A stretch of 64,000 nucleotides of DNA from a virus. The position numbers and the translations under genes were made by a program. The stretch lies in IMG/VR virus record IMGVR_UViG_3300028840_004314, positions 20,486 to 84,485 of that record. The stretch is one strand, 5' to 3'. Shown here piece by piece: positions 27,062 through 39,835 of the stretch; within the stretch, counting starts at the first letter, position 1; each line of letters opens with the position of its first letter. The notes below the pieces were generated by a model that saw only the letters and a list, made by a program, of their open reading frames with translations, ran no database searches and was not told the DNA's origin.

Positions 27062-27808
27062 ATGGGATATGGGTTAACACGCAATAAGAAGAAGTTGATC
27101 GTCAGAAGAACTAAGGTACGTCCGGCCCTGGACGCCCACCATATTGAGGAGGTGTTGTCCAGTGGTTGTTGGTCAGGTGAGAGATGTTTTTTACTGGGTG
27201 GTGGTCCCTCGTTAGTTAACTTCGATTTCTCCAAATTGGATGGCGAACTTACTATTGGAGTTAACAAAACTTTCAACGATTACTACTGTACAGTTAATTA
27301 CTCCATGGACATAGGATTCTATGATTACATTACGAATCCTTCCCCACACCCACCTCACAAGGCTCTGTGTAAAAGGTGGGAGGAGTATCCTGGTATAAAA
27401 GCCATCCTAGTACCGGATAGGCCTTTTCGATTCAAAGACAACTCCTATGTTGTGCCGAAGGTAGCCAAGGAGTGTATCAATCTGGAGGTTATGGATGGGA
27501 TCTTTCCAGGAAACAATAGTGGATTTGGGGCCCTAATGTTGGCTTTACAGTTTGGAGCCAACCCAATTTACTTACTAGGCTATGATTTCAAAACGACAAA
27601 AACAAAAACGCACTATCATGAAGGTTACGAACACTACCGTAAGCAGGACACGGACAGTTTACAGCCAGTTTTGGACAAGTTTCGTCGTCAATTCGAAAGG
27701 TTGGAGCCGACGTTCCGCTCATTAGATGTCTCAATCATCAACCTGAATCGTGAAAGTGCTCTAGAATGCTTCCCAAAAGGCCGGATAGAAAATCTGTTAA
27801 AAGGGTGA
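27062..27808 (+). CDS. Maf/MptE (DUF115)-like putative nonulosonate transferase 1
   Basis: CFLLGGGPSL...IGVN...NSGFGAL.LA...GANPIYLLGYDF. Confidence 0.7.
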   Translation: MGYGLTRNKKKLIVRRTKVRPALDAHHIEEVLSSGCWSGERCFLLGGGPSLVNFDFSKLDGELTIGVNKTFNDYYCTVNYSMDIGFYDYITNPSPHPPHKALCKRWEEYPGIKAILVPDRPFRFKDNSYVVPKVAKECINLEVMDGIFPGNNSGFGALMLALQFGANPIYLLGYDFKTTKTKTHYHEGYEHYRKQDTDSLQPVLDKFRRQFERLEPTFRSLDVSIINLNRESALECFPKGRIENLLKG

Positions 27809-28638
27809 AAGTTGTGGGGTATGGAAAATTACGTACGAGGAAGTCCACCCAATTCAACACTAAGCACGTATCACCTAAACCGGCCTTAAACATTTCTACG
27901 AAACAACGAAGTAGGGTTCCAAAAATCCCTACTGCCATACCCACAGCTACTCCATCCCCGAGCAAGAAACAACTATTCATTGTAGGTGGCGGATCCAGTC
28001 TGGCCAATTTCGAATTTAGTCGCCTGATGGGGCGGGATGTGATGTGTGTCAATACAGCCATATTCAGTGTTCCCTTCGCCAAATACTTTGTAACGAAGGA
28101 TTACACCTGGTTAGTGAAGAAGGGTGTAGTAAAAAGCAACACACAGTATGGTAATAGGGAAAGGTTTCTGAATCACAAAGCCATAAAGGTGTTCATGGCT
28201 TGTTTAGGAGAGACGTTGGTGTGTACTCCTGAGGGGTACATTGATACCAAATTCAGTTTGAGATACGACCTTACTATGTTTCATACCATTTTGGACTGTA
28301 TGAAGAAGGGAGGAATCGGTCTTACGAAGAAGGACGCCAGGTACGCGGGCGATAGTGGATACAGTGCACTACAATTGGCAGTCATATTGAAGTATGATCA
28401 GATCTTTCTACTTGGGTACGATATGACTACCACCAACAAAACACATTATCATCGAGGGTATGGAGATGGGGTGAAAGAATTTCAGACCCGACTTGATAGA
28501 TATTTGGTACACTACAGCAGGGCGATGGATGATATTAAGGAGAAGACAGAGATAGAGGTATTTAGCTGTTCCCCTATCAGTCGATTGAATGAATTTGTAC
28601 CGTTCAGGGACATCCAGGAGGTTTTATGCGCTCGTTAA
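27766..28638 (+). CDS. Maf/MptE-like putative transferase 2
   Basis: FIVGGGSSL...MCVN...DSGYSALQLA...IFLLGYDM...HYH; start may be GTG at about 27805. Confidence 0.7.
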   Translation: MLPKRPDRKSVKRVKVVGYGKLRTRKSTQFNTKHVSPKPALNISTKQRSRVPKIPTAIPTATPSPSKKQLFIVGGGSSLANFEFSRLMGRDVMCVNTAIFSVPFAKYFVTKDYTWLVKKGVVKSNTQYGNRERFLNHKAIKVFMACLGETLVCTPEGYIDTKFSLRYDLTMFHTILDCMKKGGIGLTKKDARYAGDSGYSALQLAVILKYDQIFLLGYDMTTTNKTHYHRGYGDGVKEFQTRLDRYLVHYSRAMDDIKEKTEIEVFSCSPISRLNEFVPFRDIQEVLCAR

Positions 28639-29321
28639 CAATAGTGATAGCCACAAGACATCGACAGGAAAAGTTGGAGAAAACACTCAACTCCATTCCA
28701 ATACATGATTGGATTGACTTGATCATAGTGTGTGATGGCGATGTAGAGACATACCAATGGTTGAACGGCAATAAGGATCGGTACAACCCAATGTATACTT
28801 TGCTACTTCCAAAGCACGTGGGATCTGTGGCCGCCCGAAATAGGGTAACTCCTAGTATCCAGGATGGATTTCTGTGGGCCACGGATGACATCATCTTCAA
28901 GGAGGGATCTATCGAGAGCGCCTTTAAAACATTCAACAAGTATTTTCCGGATGATGATGGAGTAGTAGGGTTTGTACAAGAACCCGGTGACTTCCATCCT
29001 ACTGGTGTAGGACTGATGGGACTGAGATTTCTGATGAGATACCCAGGGATGAAGCCTTTTTATCCCGGGTTTTACCATTTCGCCTGTCAGGAGATCCTAT
29101 ACCTGGCAGATGGACGGTTTGAACAGGATCCCAACGCTGTTGTGATACATAAACATCCTGATGCACACCCAGAGGAAAAGGACATCACACACGTGGAAGC
29201 CAGAAGGTATAAAGCCCAGGACATGGCGTTGATAGCGGATCGAAAAAACCAGAACTTAGTATGGGGCCGTGACGATGAGGATCCACCAAGCGGACATATC
29301 GAAGAGCCTCCGTCAGTTTGA
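28626..29321 (+). CDS. Glycosyltransferase family 2-like
   Basis: IVIATRHR...IIVCDG...GSVAARN...TDD. Confidence 0.7.
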   Translation: MRSLTIVIATRHRQEKLEKTLNSIPIHDWIDLIIVCDGDVETYQWLNGNKDRYNPMYTLLLPKHVGSVAARNRVTPSIQDGFLWATDDIIFKEGSIESAFKTFNKYFPDDDGVVGFVQEPGDFHPTGVGLMGLRFLMRYPGMKPFYPGFYHFACQEILYLADGRFEQDPNAVVIHKHPDAHPEEKDITHVEARRYKAQDMALIADRKNQNLVWGRDDEDPPSGHIEEPPSV

Positions 29322-30090
29322 ACCGGCCCTTCGCAAAAAGTTTCAACTGGAGAAGTACATTCGTATCACCCAGCCAGCCATTTTCTATGGGTGTCTGTCA
29401 GCTCACACTGCCAGGAAAATCATCAACCATAAAACAACGGCCGTGGTTTGCTGGCGTGGTACTGATGCCCAAAACTTGGCTAAGGCCCGACAAGGACTCC
29501 TGAAGGATCGTAAACTGGCTGAAGTGTTAGTACGAATGGTGGATTGTGACCATATAAAACATGTAGCCATTTCGGAGTTCATCGAGAAGGATTTACAAAT
29601 AGCAGGAGTCCCTTACAAGAGTGTTCCTGTGACGACGTTGGATCCAAACAAATGTAGACCTCTTCCTCGTGGGGACTGCCTGTATAGTTATGGACATCGC
29701 AGGCGTCCCCATATTTACAACGCCGCTTTAGTAGAAGCCGTGTTCCAAGAATTTCCTTCGGAGTATTGTTTGTATGGGGAGTTAGGAAGTAAAAACACCA
29801 GAATGCATCAAGACATGTTTAAGGTGTACATTCAGGTGGCGGTGGGTCTCCGTCTTACACAACATGATGGACTTCCAAATACTGTACTAGAATTAGGTTT
29901 GATGGGTAGACCTTGTATCTACAATGGAAAACTACCCAACGCCATTCCTTGGCGGAACAAGAAACATATCATACAGATCTGCCGACAACAACAGCAACGA
30001 CGAGGAGAAATAGATGCGGACATTGCGGAAGCTGTCCGAGAATACATAACTATCAAGGACGATTGGCTAAGGACGGAGTTTTACGAATGA
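29269..30090 (+). CDS. GT-B (GT4-like) glycosyltransferase
   Basis: WRGTD...GLRLTQHDGLPNTVLELGLMGRP. Confidence 0.65.
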   Translation: MTMRIHQADISKSLRQFEPALRKKFQLEKYIRITQPAIFYGCLSAHTARKIINHKTTAVVCWRGTDAQNLAKARQGLLKDRKLAEVLVRMVDCDHIKHVAISEFIEKDLQIAGVPYKSVPVTTLDPNKCRPLPRGDCLYSYGHRRRPHIYNAALVEAVFQEFPSEYCLYGELGSKNTRMHQDMFKVYIQVAVGLRLTQHDGLPNTVLELGLMGRPCIYNGKLPNAIPWRNKKHIIQICRQQQQRRGEIDADIAEAVREYITIKDDWLRTEFYE

Positions 30091-38538: not shown

Positions 38539-38546
38539 GAAGTTAC

Positions 38547-39245
38547 ATGCCATTCTTTAATTACGACGATCTGATCAAGCTACAACTCCGCCGTTTGAAA
38601 AAGAAACACATCAACATGGTGGAGATAGGGGCCTTTGATGGTGTGTACCTTCAACAGTACGTGGATTGGTACAGAGGAATCACAATACATGCCATAGAGC
38701 CCTGTAAACGGAATTACTCCGCCTTGGAAAGGAGATATAGGAAATGTCGCCAGGTACATCCAGTTAACTGTGCCATATCCTCCAAGGAAGGTAAACGGGA
38801 CTTGTTTATAGTGGATCATCCTAAGTATGAAGGGACCAAGTCCTCCCAATCCAATAGTTTGTACAAGAGTTTCGCCCAGAGTAAGAAGTCATCCAAAACA
38901 CGAGTAGAACAAGTGGAGACACTTACACTGAAACACTTTTGTGCCCGTTACAAGATCGAATTACTGGACCTGTTGAAATGCAACTGTGAGGGTGGGGAGT
39001 ACGACATTTTTACCGACACACAGGCCACAGTGGATATCCTGTCACGTACTAACATAATTGACATCGTGATCCATGGGAAAAGTCCTTTGTTTATCGAGGA
39101 AAAGTACCGTCGCAAAAAAAGGGAAATCAACGCCTTGTTAAAGGATCTAGGATTTGTTATCCTGGTGGGGCCAGATCTACAAACAATAAAGAAGCTACCA
39201 TACTACCACATTCGACAAGTGTGGACTAGGGATAAATTGAAATGA
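38547..39245 (+). CDS. FkbM-family methyltransferase
   Basis: EIGAFDG, AIEP, LLKCNCEGGEYDI. Confidence 0.85.
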   Translation: MPFFNYDDLIKLQLRRLKKKHINMVEIGAFDGVYLQQYVDWYRGITIHAIEPCKRNYSALERRYRKCRQVHPVNCAISSKEGKRDLFIVDHPKYEGTKSSQSNSLYKSFAQSKKSSKTRVEQVETLTLKHFCARYKIELLDLLKCNCEGGEYDIFTDTQATVDILSRTNIIDIVIHGKSPLFIEEKYRRKKREINALLKDLGFVILVGPDLQTIKKLPYYHIRQVWTRDKLK

Positions 39246-39835
39246 ATTACATCGTTTGTGGTTACTATACTCTCAACACGGATTACGAGGATATGGCCAA
39301 GGATCTGATAAAGACCTTGGAGACATGGAACCTGGATTACGATATCAGAGCCATCCAGAACCGTGGTAGCTGGTATACCAACATGCAATACAAACCTACT
39401 TTCATTCGTCAAATCATGGAGGAGTATCCTGACAAGAATGTAGTGTATTTGGATTGTGATGCTGAGGTGATTCAGGATCCCAAACTGTTTCACTATTTAA
39501 CATGTGATATCGCTGTACACGTATTGGATCATTCCAAATACGCCAGGAAGAATCACAAACCTGAGATGTTGAGTGGTACCATCTTTTTTAGAAACACAGA
39601 AGGAAACAGAACATTAGTGGATGAATGGATTCGTATTTGTCGGCAGAATGACAGGATGTGGGATCAGGTGGCTTTGGTGAAAGCCATTGGAACCAAACCG
39701 TTCCACAATCTTCCTGAAGAGTACTGTGTTATTTTCGACTACATGCGTACAGTGGAAAGTCCTGTGATAGTTCATTACCAGGCTTCTAGGAAGTTCCGTA
39801 GACAGAATGGACGTGTAACGACAAGAAAGGTATAA
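39242..39835 (+). CDS. GT-A nucleotide-diphospho-sugar transferase
   Basis: KPTFI, VVYLDCDAEV (DxD), LSGTIFF, WDQ, IVHYQASR. Confidence 0.75.
   Translation: MNYIVCGYYTLNTDYEDMAKDLIKTLETWNLDYDIRAIQNRGSWYTNMQYKPTFIRQIMEEYPDKNVVYLDCDAEVIQDPKLFHYLTCDIAVHVLDHSKYARKNHKPEMLSGTIFFRNTEGNRTLVDEWIRICRQNDRMWDQVALVKAIGTKPFHNLPEEYCVIFDYMRTVESPVIVHYQASRKFRRQNGRVTTRKV

Follow-up and report, generated by a model that had tools for sequence, protein, structure and literature searches.

A phage gene island 3' of a tail-fibre gene predicted to encode the synthesis, activation and transfer of a sialic-acid-like sugar

The window analysed here, a 64,000-nt stretch of the 84-kb IMG/VR record IMGVR_UViG_3300028840_004314, derives from an uncultivated sediment myovirus, the record being a metagenome-assembled fragment with a CheckV completeness of 54%. 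Directly 3' of a tail-fibre gene, positions 27,062 to 39,835 hold 18 genes in a single, closely packed co-directional run on the + strand, joined by 4-nt overlaps or short gaps, in agreement with a preliminary description of this DNA that had seen a packed run continuing from the fibre genes; the gene classes named there were recovered at their positions on the + strand with Pfam, PHROG and NCBIfam profiles and with structures. This island lies where the structural module meets the DNA-metabolism module, a frequent accessory-gene site in phages, and a DUF1599 'nucleotide modification associated' gene sits on its 3' side. The G+C content is uniform. No membrane protein and no transmembrane-like segment was seen among the island products, and no tyrosine integrase was found in the 84-kb record. 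The tail-fibre gene (25862..27049, +; phrog_24210 tail fibre, E 4e-15), a candidate source of the glycan acceptor, encodes a protein whose N-terminal ~240 aa are conserved and whose C-terminus is variable when aligned with paralogues in the related loci L005 and L025. Its Ser+Thr content is 25%, and the richness in these residues formerly invoked for the virion proteins is real (18–25%), but ordinary for tail proteins, with no special Ser/Thr tracts in virion proteins beyond the usual tail-protein composition. A gap of 12 nt, containing an SD-like GGTGAT, separates the fibre stop from the start at 27062, no clear terminator was seen before 42288, and promoter and terminator scans returned signals no better than in shuffled sequence; the island probably shares the late transcript of the tail genes.

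Two adjacent genes at the start of the island encode sialyltransferase-fold (GT42/Maf superfamily) enzymes of one family, A1: the first (27062..27808, +; phrog_4603, E 1e-26) bears a basic N-terminal extension starting MGYG, and the second (27805..28638, +; phrog_4603, E 1e-22), of 277 aa as called in databases, has 59 metagenomic homologues. A third such domain, of family A2 (30810-31568), forms the C-terminal part of a protein (30087..31571, +) with an N-terminal GT2 domain (PF00535, E 4.5e-22); A2 is GT2-fused in other proteins as well, and stands alone in loci L002 and L005. Pfam alone would miss all three: the first ORF scores 18.7 bits against PF01973, under the cut-off of 34.6, the second has no Pfam match, and neither has the C-terminal half of 30087-31571, which belongs to a Pfam-less family. 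Fold-level evidence nevertheless supports each of them, and A1 and A2 align with each other by hhalign (probability 90%, E 2e-6). Against the PDB, the A1 profile matches Cst-I/Cst-II over its full length (E 2e-8) and also the P. multocida LOS sialyltransferase, while Maf gives it no significant match (E 0.098). AlphaFold (AF2) models reach a pLDDT of 86 for 27805..28638 and 94 for the A2 domain; by VIA, the former superposes on the Maf 5mu5 core with Z 14.4 (rmsd 3.6, 194 aa) and on Cst-I with Z 12.5, and Cst-II is its top Foldseek match; the latter has Z 13.6 to the Maf core (rmsd 3.3, 193 aa) and Z 11.3 to Cst-II. Matches of the models to Cst-I/II lie at Z 10–12.5 overall. The fold of the three domains first termed Maf/MptE-like is thus real, but the designation as Maf-type transferases did not hold in the family sense for these single-domain proteins of 248–277 aa, which lack the Maf flanking domains and have no flagellar genes among the neighbours seen. 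By sequence, the fibre-adjacent transferases are nearer Cst-I/II (GT42) than Maf.

About six ordinary glycosyltransferases accompany them. Four are clear, namely the GT2 domain mentioned above, a second GT2 enzyme (32524..33300, +; PF00535, E 2e-31), a GT4 enzyme of the GT-B type (31568..32536, +; PF00534, E 1e-10) and a GT-A nucleotide-diphospho-sugar transferase encoded by the final gene of the island (39242..39835, +; PF03407, E 7e-7), whose homologue is the last conserved gene in L025 too. The product of 29275..30090 (+), with no Pfam match, is a compact GT-B (GT1/GT4-like) by its ESM Atlas structure only (TM 0.77–0.84 to GT group-1 clusters); its nearest structure clusters are nearly all viral, and homologues are kept in L005, L025 and L115. 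The sixth (28626..29321, +) is a probable, weakly supported GT-A enzyme (PF09258, E 0.007; MftF, E 2e-4), for which hhalign with GT2 was not decisive although it placed the DxD region in register, and is conserved at 47–52% in L005 and L025. The glycosyltransferases of the island carry a strongly positive net charge (+13 to +27).

The nonulosonic acid synthase NeuB (36123..36944, +; PF03102, 209 bits) lacks a SAF domain and has the short 290-aa 6ncs as best PDB match; its metal-binding and catalytic residues align with those of N. meningitidis NeuB and are conserved, and its clade occurs in at least 180 IMG/VR contigs. A CMP-sugar synthetase, a NeuA/PseF-like cytidylyltransferase (33297..33965, +; PF02348, 66.8 bits), scores 91.9 bits against TIGR03584 PseF, under the equivalog cut-off. 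It is followed by two small ORFs of ~83 and ~67 aa (33968..34428, +), with no Pfam match, one of which matches phrog_5768, and for which tblastn found no match in L005 or L025. A short-chain dehydrogenase/reductase (SDR; 34412..35203, +; PF13561, E 2e-25), first called PtmA-like and with generic SDR matches only in NCBIfam, adjoins the radical SAM/SPASM gene (35286..36104, +; PF13186 and PF04055), an arrangement conserved in L002 and L025. The radical SAM/SPASM enzyme is BtrN-like (best PDB sequence match, E 1.6e-6) and 43–58% identical in at least 12 related loci, where it lies beside NeuB; in relatives it is paired with a class IV aminotransferase, the SDR being found instead in this window. 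The remaining genes encode two class I SAM methyltransferases (36958..37554, +; PF13489, PF08241; and 37975..38538, +; PF13489, E 8e-12), a FkbM-family methyltransferase (38547..39245, +; PF05050, E 1e-14), and a non-conserved 125-aa ORF without matches (37614..37991, +); the ATG at 36958 is preceded by an SD and agrees with where homologue matches begin. No NeuC, PseB/C or LegB/C type gene was found in the 84-kb record, or on the contig of a 179-kb relative that is presumed to be phage (contig 1). The earlier proposal that the phage makes its own nonulosonate donor consequently stands for NeuB and NeuA, but only these last two steps are encoded. Taken together, the window holds a phage-resident island whose enzymes are expected to produce and activate a sialic-acid-like sugar and to place it in a methylated glycan. 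Neither an island-like kit in sequenced cultured phages nor a published description of such a phage island was found.

The whole 18-gene order, together with the fibre genes, is collinear in the 179-kb contig at 40–64% aa identity, and also in L005. Of the 11 IMG/VR relatives that are informative, 10 have both A1 genes directly 3' of the fibre genes, and with L025 and this window the count becomes 12 of the 13 informative lineage members, which bears out the linkage to tail genes anticipated for related phages. NeuB and NeuA are wholly absent from five relatives carrying the fibre-adjacent A1 pair. The NeuB/NeuA/A2 set, in turn, recurs in other phage types: among ~16 non-redundant viral A2 loci, a NeuA-like gene lies within 10 kb in 15 and NeuB in 12. 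The island also borders the distal tail gene of phages with two unrelated kinds of tail (siphovirus-like, with phrog_1101, in L002 and L009; a phrog_5668 fibre in L019), and one lineage, with UvsX-like and phrog_850 neighbours, carries the NeuB/A2 module with no tail genes within 10 kb. Because the A1 pair is linked to the fibre in nearly all informative members of the lineage, even where NeuB and NeuA are missing, while NeuB, NeuA and A2 recur elsewhere, the comparison of these loci indicates that the island consists of a lineage-conserved, fibre-linked transferase pair and an exchangeable sugar module. This two-module structure is the new point of the analysis, and it implies that the donor of the A1 pair need not be a phage-made sugar. 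The gene identities, folds, conservation and linkage are established here.

The nature of the sugar, the donor that each transferase uses, the time at which the genes are expressed and the acceptor are inferred, and the following mechanism is deduced from the gene families. NeuB would turn PEP and a host-supplied hexose or hexosamine into a nine-carbon nonulosonic acid, which the BtrN-like radical-SAM enzyme and the SDR may tailor, for example by oxidation and then reduction, resulting in epimerisation at one carbon, and which the NeuA-like enzyme would convert into the CMP-sugar. The GT2, GT4 and GT-A enzymes would assemble an oligosaccharide, onto which the GT2-fused A2 domain could transfer the nonulosonate, and the three methyltransferases would decorate the product. 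In relatives devoid of NeuB and NeuA, the A1 pair would have to take its donor from the host, as a CMP-ulosonate of which CMP-Kdo is one example. But what does the glycan decorate? The most likely acceptor is a virion protein of the phage itself, the tail fibre or another one, modified in the cytoplasm prior to assembly, and to this reading we accord a little less than an even chance. It suits soluble enzymes encoded in line with the tail genes, 12 nt from the fibre stop and with a ribosome-binding site, the fibre linkage, and, by analogy, the glycosylation precedents among phages and viruses discussed below. Several points argue against it: the closest sequence kin, GT42 enzymes, have lipid-linked oligosaccharides, not proteins, as their known acceptors; genes that convert the host surface or mask a receptor also typically lie beside a receptor-binding gene; the site is a common accessory-gene junction; one lineage keeps its NeuB/A2 module away from tail genes; the upstream sugar steps are missing; the Ser/Thr content of virion proteins is unremarkable; and the promoter and terminator scans did no better than shuffled sequence.

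The same enzymes could instead remodel the host envelope, soluble transferases on the cytoplasmic side of the membrane capping lipid-linked LPS/LOS, capsule or S-layer intermediates with nonulosonate, and the cap would then mask the receptor of the fibre, so that superinfection is blocked or progeny are kept off debris. This is a doubtful reading, yet one that deserves attention, as the A1 profile is nearest to LOS sialyltransferases (Cst-I/II and that of P. multocida), the basic charge of the glycosyltransferases is common in peripheral membrane ones, the adjacency to a receptor-binding gene fits known receptor-masking or seroconversion genes, and a relative that lacks NeuB and NeuA would depend on a CMP-sugar of its host, of which the LPS precursor CMP-Kdo is an example. 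However, the island contains no flippase, polymerase, ligase, initiating phosphoglycosyltransferase or Gtr-type membrane protein, which adds to the lack of transmembrane segments and of an integrase; it runs in the direction of the late tail genes and is closely coupled to them; and a new envelope glycan would presumably make up a small share of the surface within a lytic cycle.

A host protein (flagellin, pilin or an adhesin) is an improbable target, as is a product in the form of a glycoconjugate that stays free or is secreted. Flagellin glycosylation islands do combine NeuB, NeuA, methyltransferases and SDRs, a set shared here, and both models find their top structural match in the catalytic core of Maf, but the Maf flanking domains are missing (248–277 aa against 632–666), flagellar genes were not seen nearby, and such a target would leave the conserved position beside the fibre without a reason. 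Phage glycosyltransferases can reportedly hypermodify DNA with diverse glycans, and with this precedent, the DUF1599 gene and the basic glycosyltransferases one may imagine the glycan on modified phage bases; this is very improbable, as the record (54% of the genome) has no dCMP/dUMP hydroxymethylase-type (PF00303) gene and an ordinary ThyX, DUF1599 is not conserved beside the island in L025, and we know of no nonulosonate on DNA. Finally, recent capture of an LPS or capsule fragment from a host, or chimerism of the assembly, conceivable for an incomplete metagenomic record, is scarcely credible given the collinearity in independent contigs, the even G+C, the recovery of 100% of sampled words in two runs from two studies (one or both of which may be the source sample), and the presence of the A2 family in only one of ~185,000 species genomes, there on the phage-like 179-kb contig; the island is phage-resident, as first proposed.

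Among known systems, the Campylobacter jejuni LOS locus (neuB1-neuC1-neuA1, cst-II/cst-I of GT42, cgtA/cgtB) likewise unites NeuB, a CMP-sugar synthetase, GT42 and ordinary glycosyltransferases, whereas the island is phage-encoded, has no NeuC and a NeuB without SAF domain, comprises three transferase-fold domains, one of them GT2-fused, and adds a radical-SAM enzyme, an SDR and three methyltransferases. A1 keeps the N-terminal G-x-G-P-S-L, S-G and G-x-D motifs of Cst-I/II and the equivalent of Tyr162, but that of the catalytic His188 could not be aligned. Maf of Magnetospirillum (PDB 5mu5) provides the best structural match in its core, and the island enzymes, similarly predicted to be soluble and cytoplasmic, could act on protein before export or assembly; Maf proteins, in contrast, exceed 600 aa, and both their profile match and the PF01973 score are too low. 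As for BtrN, a radical-SAM 2-deoxy-scyllo-inosamine dehydrogenase (PDB 4m7t), the alignment covers the radical-SAM core only (residues 41-134), and the radical-SAM/aminotransferase pairing of the relatives mirrors BtrN-plus-aminotransferase chemistry, unlike the SDR of the window. Surface- or receptor-altering genes adjoin the receptor-binding gene in P22 (gtrABC, beside the tailspike gene) and T5 (llp, beside pb5), but these are one to three genes, usually for membrane proteins, often in temperate phages and with their own promoter, in contrast to 18 soluble enzymes in line with tail genes. Mycobacteriophage-encoded glycosyltransferases are said to glycosylate the phage's own virion (capsid and tail proteins) in the cytoplasm, as the island enzymes may do on their putative acceptor, and to our knowledge neither nonulosonic acid synthesis nor sialyltransferase-fold enzymes take part there. 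For HRPV-1, PMC6137143 describes a spike protein, VP4, whose N-glycan is capped with 5-N-formyl-legionaminic acid (Kandiba et al. 2012), the cap affecting adsorption. The sugar and its machinery are wholly the host's in that case, and HRPV-1 differs from a tailed phage in being an enveloped virus of archaea, but it offers a precedent for a nonulosonate-capped glycan on the receptor-binding protein of a prokaryotic virus.

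The 84,485-bp linear IMG/VR record, whose bases 20486-84485 make up the window, is about 54% complete (CheckV) and derives from a contractile-tailed phage, with genes for a tail sheath (12376-14025; phrog_23, E 2e-74), a baseplate hub (21231-21929), a baseplate wedge (22633-24345; phrog_219, E 1e-75), a P2 gpI-like protein (24757-25851) and a tail fibre (25862-27049). Because the sheath is so distant from that of every deposited phage (best identity only about 30-35%), the phage is placed in an uncultured lineage. The island DNA was present in full in two sequencing runs, one from sediment and one from a marine-sediment study, and no RNA runs were listed among those matching it. 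No tRNA genes were found in the 64-kb window. Of the 26 proteins of tail and island that were scored, just one has a transmembrane-like segment (hydropathy 2.1 across 19 residues), the product of a 130-aa ORF (24361-24753) between the wedge and gpI-like genes.

The island comprises 18 plus-strand ORFs (27062-39835) joined by 4-nt overlaps or short gaps, and is separated from the fibre stop codon by 12 nt carrying a ribosome-binding site. No clear terminator was seen before 42288, where the plus-strand run ends at a good terminator-like hairpin (42288-42311), promoter and terminator scans having scored no better than shuffled sequence. Family scans bore out the preliminary description for NeuB (36123-36944; 209 bits), a NeuA-type cytidylyltransferase (33297-33965), an SDR (34412-35203), a radical-SAM/SPASM enzyme (35286-36104) and three methyltransferases, two of class I and one of the FkbM type. 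Of the six glycosyltransferase domains proposed there (three GT2, two GT-B and one other GT-A), the scans recovered two clear GT2 domains, a GT4 and a PF03407 GT-A, and two more need other evidence: 28626-29321 is a weakly supported GT-A, and 29275-30090 is a compact GT-B solely by its ESM Atlas model (TM 0.77-0.84 to GT group-1 clusters). The island proteins have no transmembrane-like segment, the island encodes no flippase, polymerase or initiating transferase, and the 84-kb record has no PF00589 integrase. The idea that the island might encode a conserved acceptor or carrier protein was dropped, since its small ORFs are not conserved. On its 3' side lie a DUF1599 gene ('nucleotide modification associated domain 1', phrog_1485; 39840-40214), rejected as an island member because it is not conserved beside the island in L025 (a 179-kb relative), and an SbcD/Mre11-like exonuclease gene (40696-42075). 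Further on, minus-strand genes encode FolE (GTP cyclohydrolase I; 48846-49529, with a QueF-like signal just under the Pfam cut-off), which may serve a 7-deazaguanine or folate function, ThyX (51200-51844) and an SNF2-type helicase (52426-53910).

Three domains previously described as Maf/MptE-like do have a sialyltransferase fold, but they are not Maf proteins, and two of them lie nearer to GT42 in sequence. Transferase 1 (27062-27808) and transferase 2 (27805-28638) belong to one family (A1), and the third domain (A2; 30810-31568) forms the C-terminal half of a GT2 fusion (30087-31571). PF01973 (MAF_flag10/MptE-like) scores 18.7 bits against a gathering threshold of 34.6 for transferase 1 and does not match the other two domains; many database homologues bear precomputed PF01973 tags. 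As single sequences, the transferases matched nothing in the PDB. The A1 alignment, with 59 metagenomic homologues of transferase 2, gave a profile that aligns over its full length with GT42 enzymes (Cst-I 2p2v, E 2.3e-8; Cst-II 1ro7, 8e-8; Pasteurella LOS sialyltransferase 9c08, 5e-5), as against E 0.098 over 28 residues for Maf. The region of the Cst-II catalytic base His188 is unaligned with this profile, and the A1 family has an invariant T-H-Y-H motif. The structural matches of the AlphaFold model of transferase 2 (pLDDT 86) are to the Maf catalytic core (Z 14.4), Cst-I (12.5), Cst-II (12.3), MptE kinase (11) and animal ST8SiaIII (9.9), with unrelated folds at about Z 4. In the family scans, transferase 2 also gave a weak match to the Kdo transferase WaaZ.

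The A2 domain belongs to a Pfam-less family of proteins of about 250 aa. The A1 and A2 alignments match by hhalign with a probability of 90% (E 2e-6), against a weak 22% when the A1 profile is compared with the single A2-domain sequence. The A2 model (pLDDT 94) returns the same match list as transferase 2 (Maf, Z 13.6; Cst-II, Z 11.3), the Maf-core match of both models covering residues ~257-513 of 5mu5. The A2 profile found no match among PDB sequences, so the resemblance of this family to GT42 is one of fold alone, and no names are on record for ten distant relatives of about 300 aa. Maf proteins exceed 600 aa, with flanking N- and C-terminal domains, and are linked to flagellin or flagellar genes, whereas the A1 transferases are single-domain proteins of 248 and 277 aa whose neighbours are tail and glycan genes, with no flagellar linkage seen. 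Because the A2 domain is fused to a GT2 domain, both in the island and in other database proteins, the nonulosonate seems to be added to a sugar, as by Cst-II, and not straight to Ser/Thr. Given the A1 sequence match to GT42, the single-domain size, the lack of flagellar neighbours and the GT2 fusion, we call these enzymes GT42/Maf-superfamily transferases.

Both A1 transferases (27062-27220, 27805-27970) and a subset of their homologues (alignments A1 and A4) bear a basic, low-confidence N-terminal extension of 25-55 aa, with M-G-Y-G-(L/K) at its start and, in many cases, P-x-L at its end. It might serve for docking, or as a membrane-binding or nucleic-acid-binding segment. A search for an N-terminal GYG tag common to other window proteins retrieved transferase 1 alone, with a filter so strict that it missed even transferase 2, and the idea was set aside.

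NeuB matches PF03102 with 208.9 bits (cut-off 22.1), and its profile alignment to the N. meningitidis enzyme (1xuu) keeps equivalents of K53, Q55, K129, S132, S154, H215, H236 and D247, among them the metal-binding His pair and substrate-binding Lys, Gln, Ser and Asp residues, with Ser at the Asn184 position, as in PseI and 6ncs. The latter, a 290-aa Leptospira protein, is the closest solved structure and, like the 273-aa phage protein, which stops with the NeuB domain, has no C-terminal SAF/antifreeze-like domain; environmental bacteria also have NeuBs of this SAF-less type (PMC8208679). NeuB scores 203 bits against the Neu5Ac synthase equivalog TIGR03569 (cut-off 399.65) and 162 against the pseudaminic acid synthase TIGR03586 (340.25), and the NeuA-like protein passes PF02348 (66.8 bits against 22.6) and falls below the PseF equivalog (91.9 against 205.7). 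Both proteins stay below every NCBIfam equivalog cut-off and so do not identify the sugar.

The earlier proposal that the phage synthesizes its own donor is matched by genes for these two steps, but not further upstream: NeuC-type (PF02350), PseB/LegB (PF02719) and PseC/LegC (PF01041) genes are absent from the 84-kb record, itself about 54% complete, and the precursor must therefore be host-supplied or a simple hexose. In the genome that includes L025, all PF02350 and PF01041 matches fall on C4, C6 and C7 and none on contig 1, the presumed phage contig, with which L025 is provisionally equated from its accession. The closest solved relative of the radical-SAM enzyme is BtrN, a sugar-oxidising dehydrogenase. 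In several related loci this enzyme adjoins NeuB together with a class IV aminotransferase, and in the window, L002 (a siphovirus-like contig) and L025 it occurs with an SDR. The radical-SAM enzyme would oxidise one sugar carbon, at which amination or reduction would follow. Related phage islands regularly have the aminotransferase (PF01063) alongside NeuB and the BtrN-like enzyme (L007 6205-7200; L009 13822-14790; L010 7731-8678; L012 15208-16209; L013 6817-7782), and the window does not have it; these islands hint at a radical-SAM plus transaminase route to an amino-nonulosonate.

Does the island remain linked to tail genes in related phages? A fibre-alignment scan gathered 14 relatives within this myovirus lineage, whose wedge is 43-48% identical; 11 of them are informative, their sequence reaching far enough past the fibre. 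Ten of the 11 have homologues of both A1 transferases immediately behind their fibre gene or genes, and with L025 and the window counted the tally is 12 of 13 informative members; the remainder of the island differs among them. The records of five of these relatives contain neither NeuB nor a PF02348 gene anywhere. One of the five, L123 (IMGVR_UViG_3300033149_002975; 102,811 bp), has direct terminal repeats and is possibly a complete genome; its fibre, transferase 1 and transferase 2 occur in order, the last inside a 533-aa ORF. The NeuB/NeuA/A2 module also directly follows a distal tail gene (phrog_1101 tail protein) in the siphovirus-like contigs L002 and L009 and a 1182-aa fibre in L019; one lineage, with UvsX-like and phrog_850 neighbours, carries it among genes of DNA metabolism instead. 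As the A1 pair is fibre-linked also where NeuB and NeuA are missing, and the module recurs beside other tail types, the island is a composite of a fibre-linked A1 pair, core to the lineage, and a mobile nonulosonate cassette. Related islands also contain mobile elements, a GIY-YIG/NUMOD3 homing endonuclease and a phrog_506 transposase (L007 3128-3922; L015 2910-4337), which fits cassette exchange. In NeuB-less relatives, the A1 pair must draw on a donor made by the host, CMP-Kdo for example, or on another substrate.

In L025 (JAHQJS010000001.1; 179,096 bp) the whole island order is retained, with aa identities of 40-64%. It runs gpI-like, two fibres, transferase 1, transferase 2, GT-A, GT-B, GT2+A2, GT4, GT2 and NeuA, followed by SDR, radical-SAM, NeuB, two methyltransferases, FkbM and GT-A. 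Most of the island is likewise collinear in L005, a close relative, where a Cys-rich 393-aa ORF (2491-3672) with no fibre homology and no PHROG match is inserted between the gpI-like and fibre genes.

Which molecule would then receive the sugar? Glycosylation of the virion, or of its fibre, is the reading we favour, at a little under even confidence. It accords with the conserved fibre adjacency, with the 12-nt gap and its ribosome-binding site after the fibre stop, no clear terminator intervening until 42288, with the solubility of all the enzymes and with the absence of an integrase. There is precedent in mycobacteriophages, whose virions are reportedly glycosylated by phage-encoded glycosyltransferases, and in the HRPV-1 spike, whose nonulosonate-capped glycan affects adsorption (PMC6137143). 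Remodelling of the host envelope, which we consider somewhat unlikely, would agree with the GT42 sequence affinity, pointing to lipid-linked glycan acceptors, with the strongly basic glycosyltransferases, with the way receptor-masking and seroconversion genes likewise adjoin receptor-binding genes, and with the position of the island at a module junction, a typical collecting site of accessory genes; the membrane parts of known conversion modules are missing from it. Some other target is improbable, and glycosylation of DNA very unlikely, as the record has no hydroxymethylase-type gene, ThyX is present and the DUF1599 gene is not conserved beside the island. That the island is a captured host fragment or a chimeric assembly, an outcome for which the preliminary description had allowed, is scarcely credible given its collinearity in L025 and L005, its even G+C content and its lack of membrane proteins. 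Returning to virion glycosylation, we tentatively propose that the phage itself produces a sialic-acid-like sugar and attaches it to its receptor-binding fibres, the A1 pair being fixed and the exchangeable synthesis cassette diversifying the glycan. If so, the glycan would help to recognise the host or to protect the virion, much as in HRPV-1, the difference being that here the virus encodes the machinery.

The A2 family occurs at 20 IMG/VR loci (about 16 non-redundant), with a NeuA-like gene within 10 kb in 15 and NeuB in 12. Among about 185,000 species genomes it was found in one, as the phage-like contig L025, binned in an Asgard MAG, and 1.84 billion representative proteins yielded 54 relatives at E≤1e-30 and 798 at E≤1e-10. 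The SAF-less NeuB clade extends to at least 180 IMG/VR contigs, the best 80 of which carry NeuA (55), SDR (42), aminotransferase (19), radical-SAM (18), A2 (12) and A1 (3). Neither A1 (transferase 2 as query) nor the A2 domain matched any of 50,697 GenBank phage records by tblastn, nor did the island match GenBank phages by megablast; NeuB in GenBank phage records was limited to two uncultured phages and one misfiled Moritella contig. With the NeuB clade on so many contigs and A1 and A2 absent from deposited phage records, the trait appears widespread but uncultured and, within the searches made, undescribed. Close relatives of the island lie on contigs in four Asgard MAGs (Borrarchaeum, Thorarchaeota, Heimdallarchaeaceae and Hodarchaeota; L025 and proteins P0021, P0112, P0130, P0144 and P0232). 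This placement most likely reflects mis-binning in sediment studies whose deposits are mainly Asgard MAGs; a less likely reading, several relatives being in such MAGs, is that the lineage infects Asgard archaea. In some large phage contigs (L020, L023, L024 and L022, a 488-kb contig) an A2-like gene is surrounded by unbroken runs, at least 20 kb long, of genes of glycan-synthesis size, islands far exceeding that of the window.

Sialic-acid-like sugars are known from the surfaces of hosts and bacteria, where viruses bind or cleave them, and virus-encoded glycosylation has so far been known from giant viruses and mycobacteriophages. Were the proposal right, a phage able to make, activate and transfer such a sugar would add a new sugar and enzyme class to virus-encoded glycosylation. 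In the literature searched, whose coverage is incomplete, we found no paper on phage-encoded NeuB and NeuA with a sialyltransferase-like enzyme; pseI appears as a marine phage auxiliary gene in one review, in a table abbreviation alone. New in this analysis are the affinity to GT42 at the level of sequence, the division of the island into two modules, the recurrence of the BtrN-like enzyme as a conserved partner, and the finding that across the lineage the A1 pair is linked to the fibre whether or not NeuB and NeuA are present. The two-part architecture is a concrete hypothesis open to heterologous expression, and the island a source of new small, soluble sialyltransferase-like enzymes and, possibly, of a way to modified nonulosonates through radical-SAM chemistry. 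We rate it as a variation on kinds already known, namely bacterial sialylation clusters and phage-encoded virion glycosylation. Phage O-antigen and LPS conversion modules combine membrane parts (GtrA/B/C, Wzx/Wzy, acyltransferase) with a temperate lifestyle, a combination not seen here. The gene arrangement looked for in phage virion-glycosylation systems, glycosyltransferase genes within or abutting the structural operon across relatives, is present in 12 of 13 informative members of this lineage, the window counted, as the A1 pair directly behind the fibre genes.
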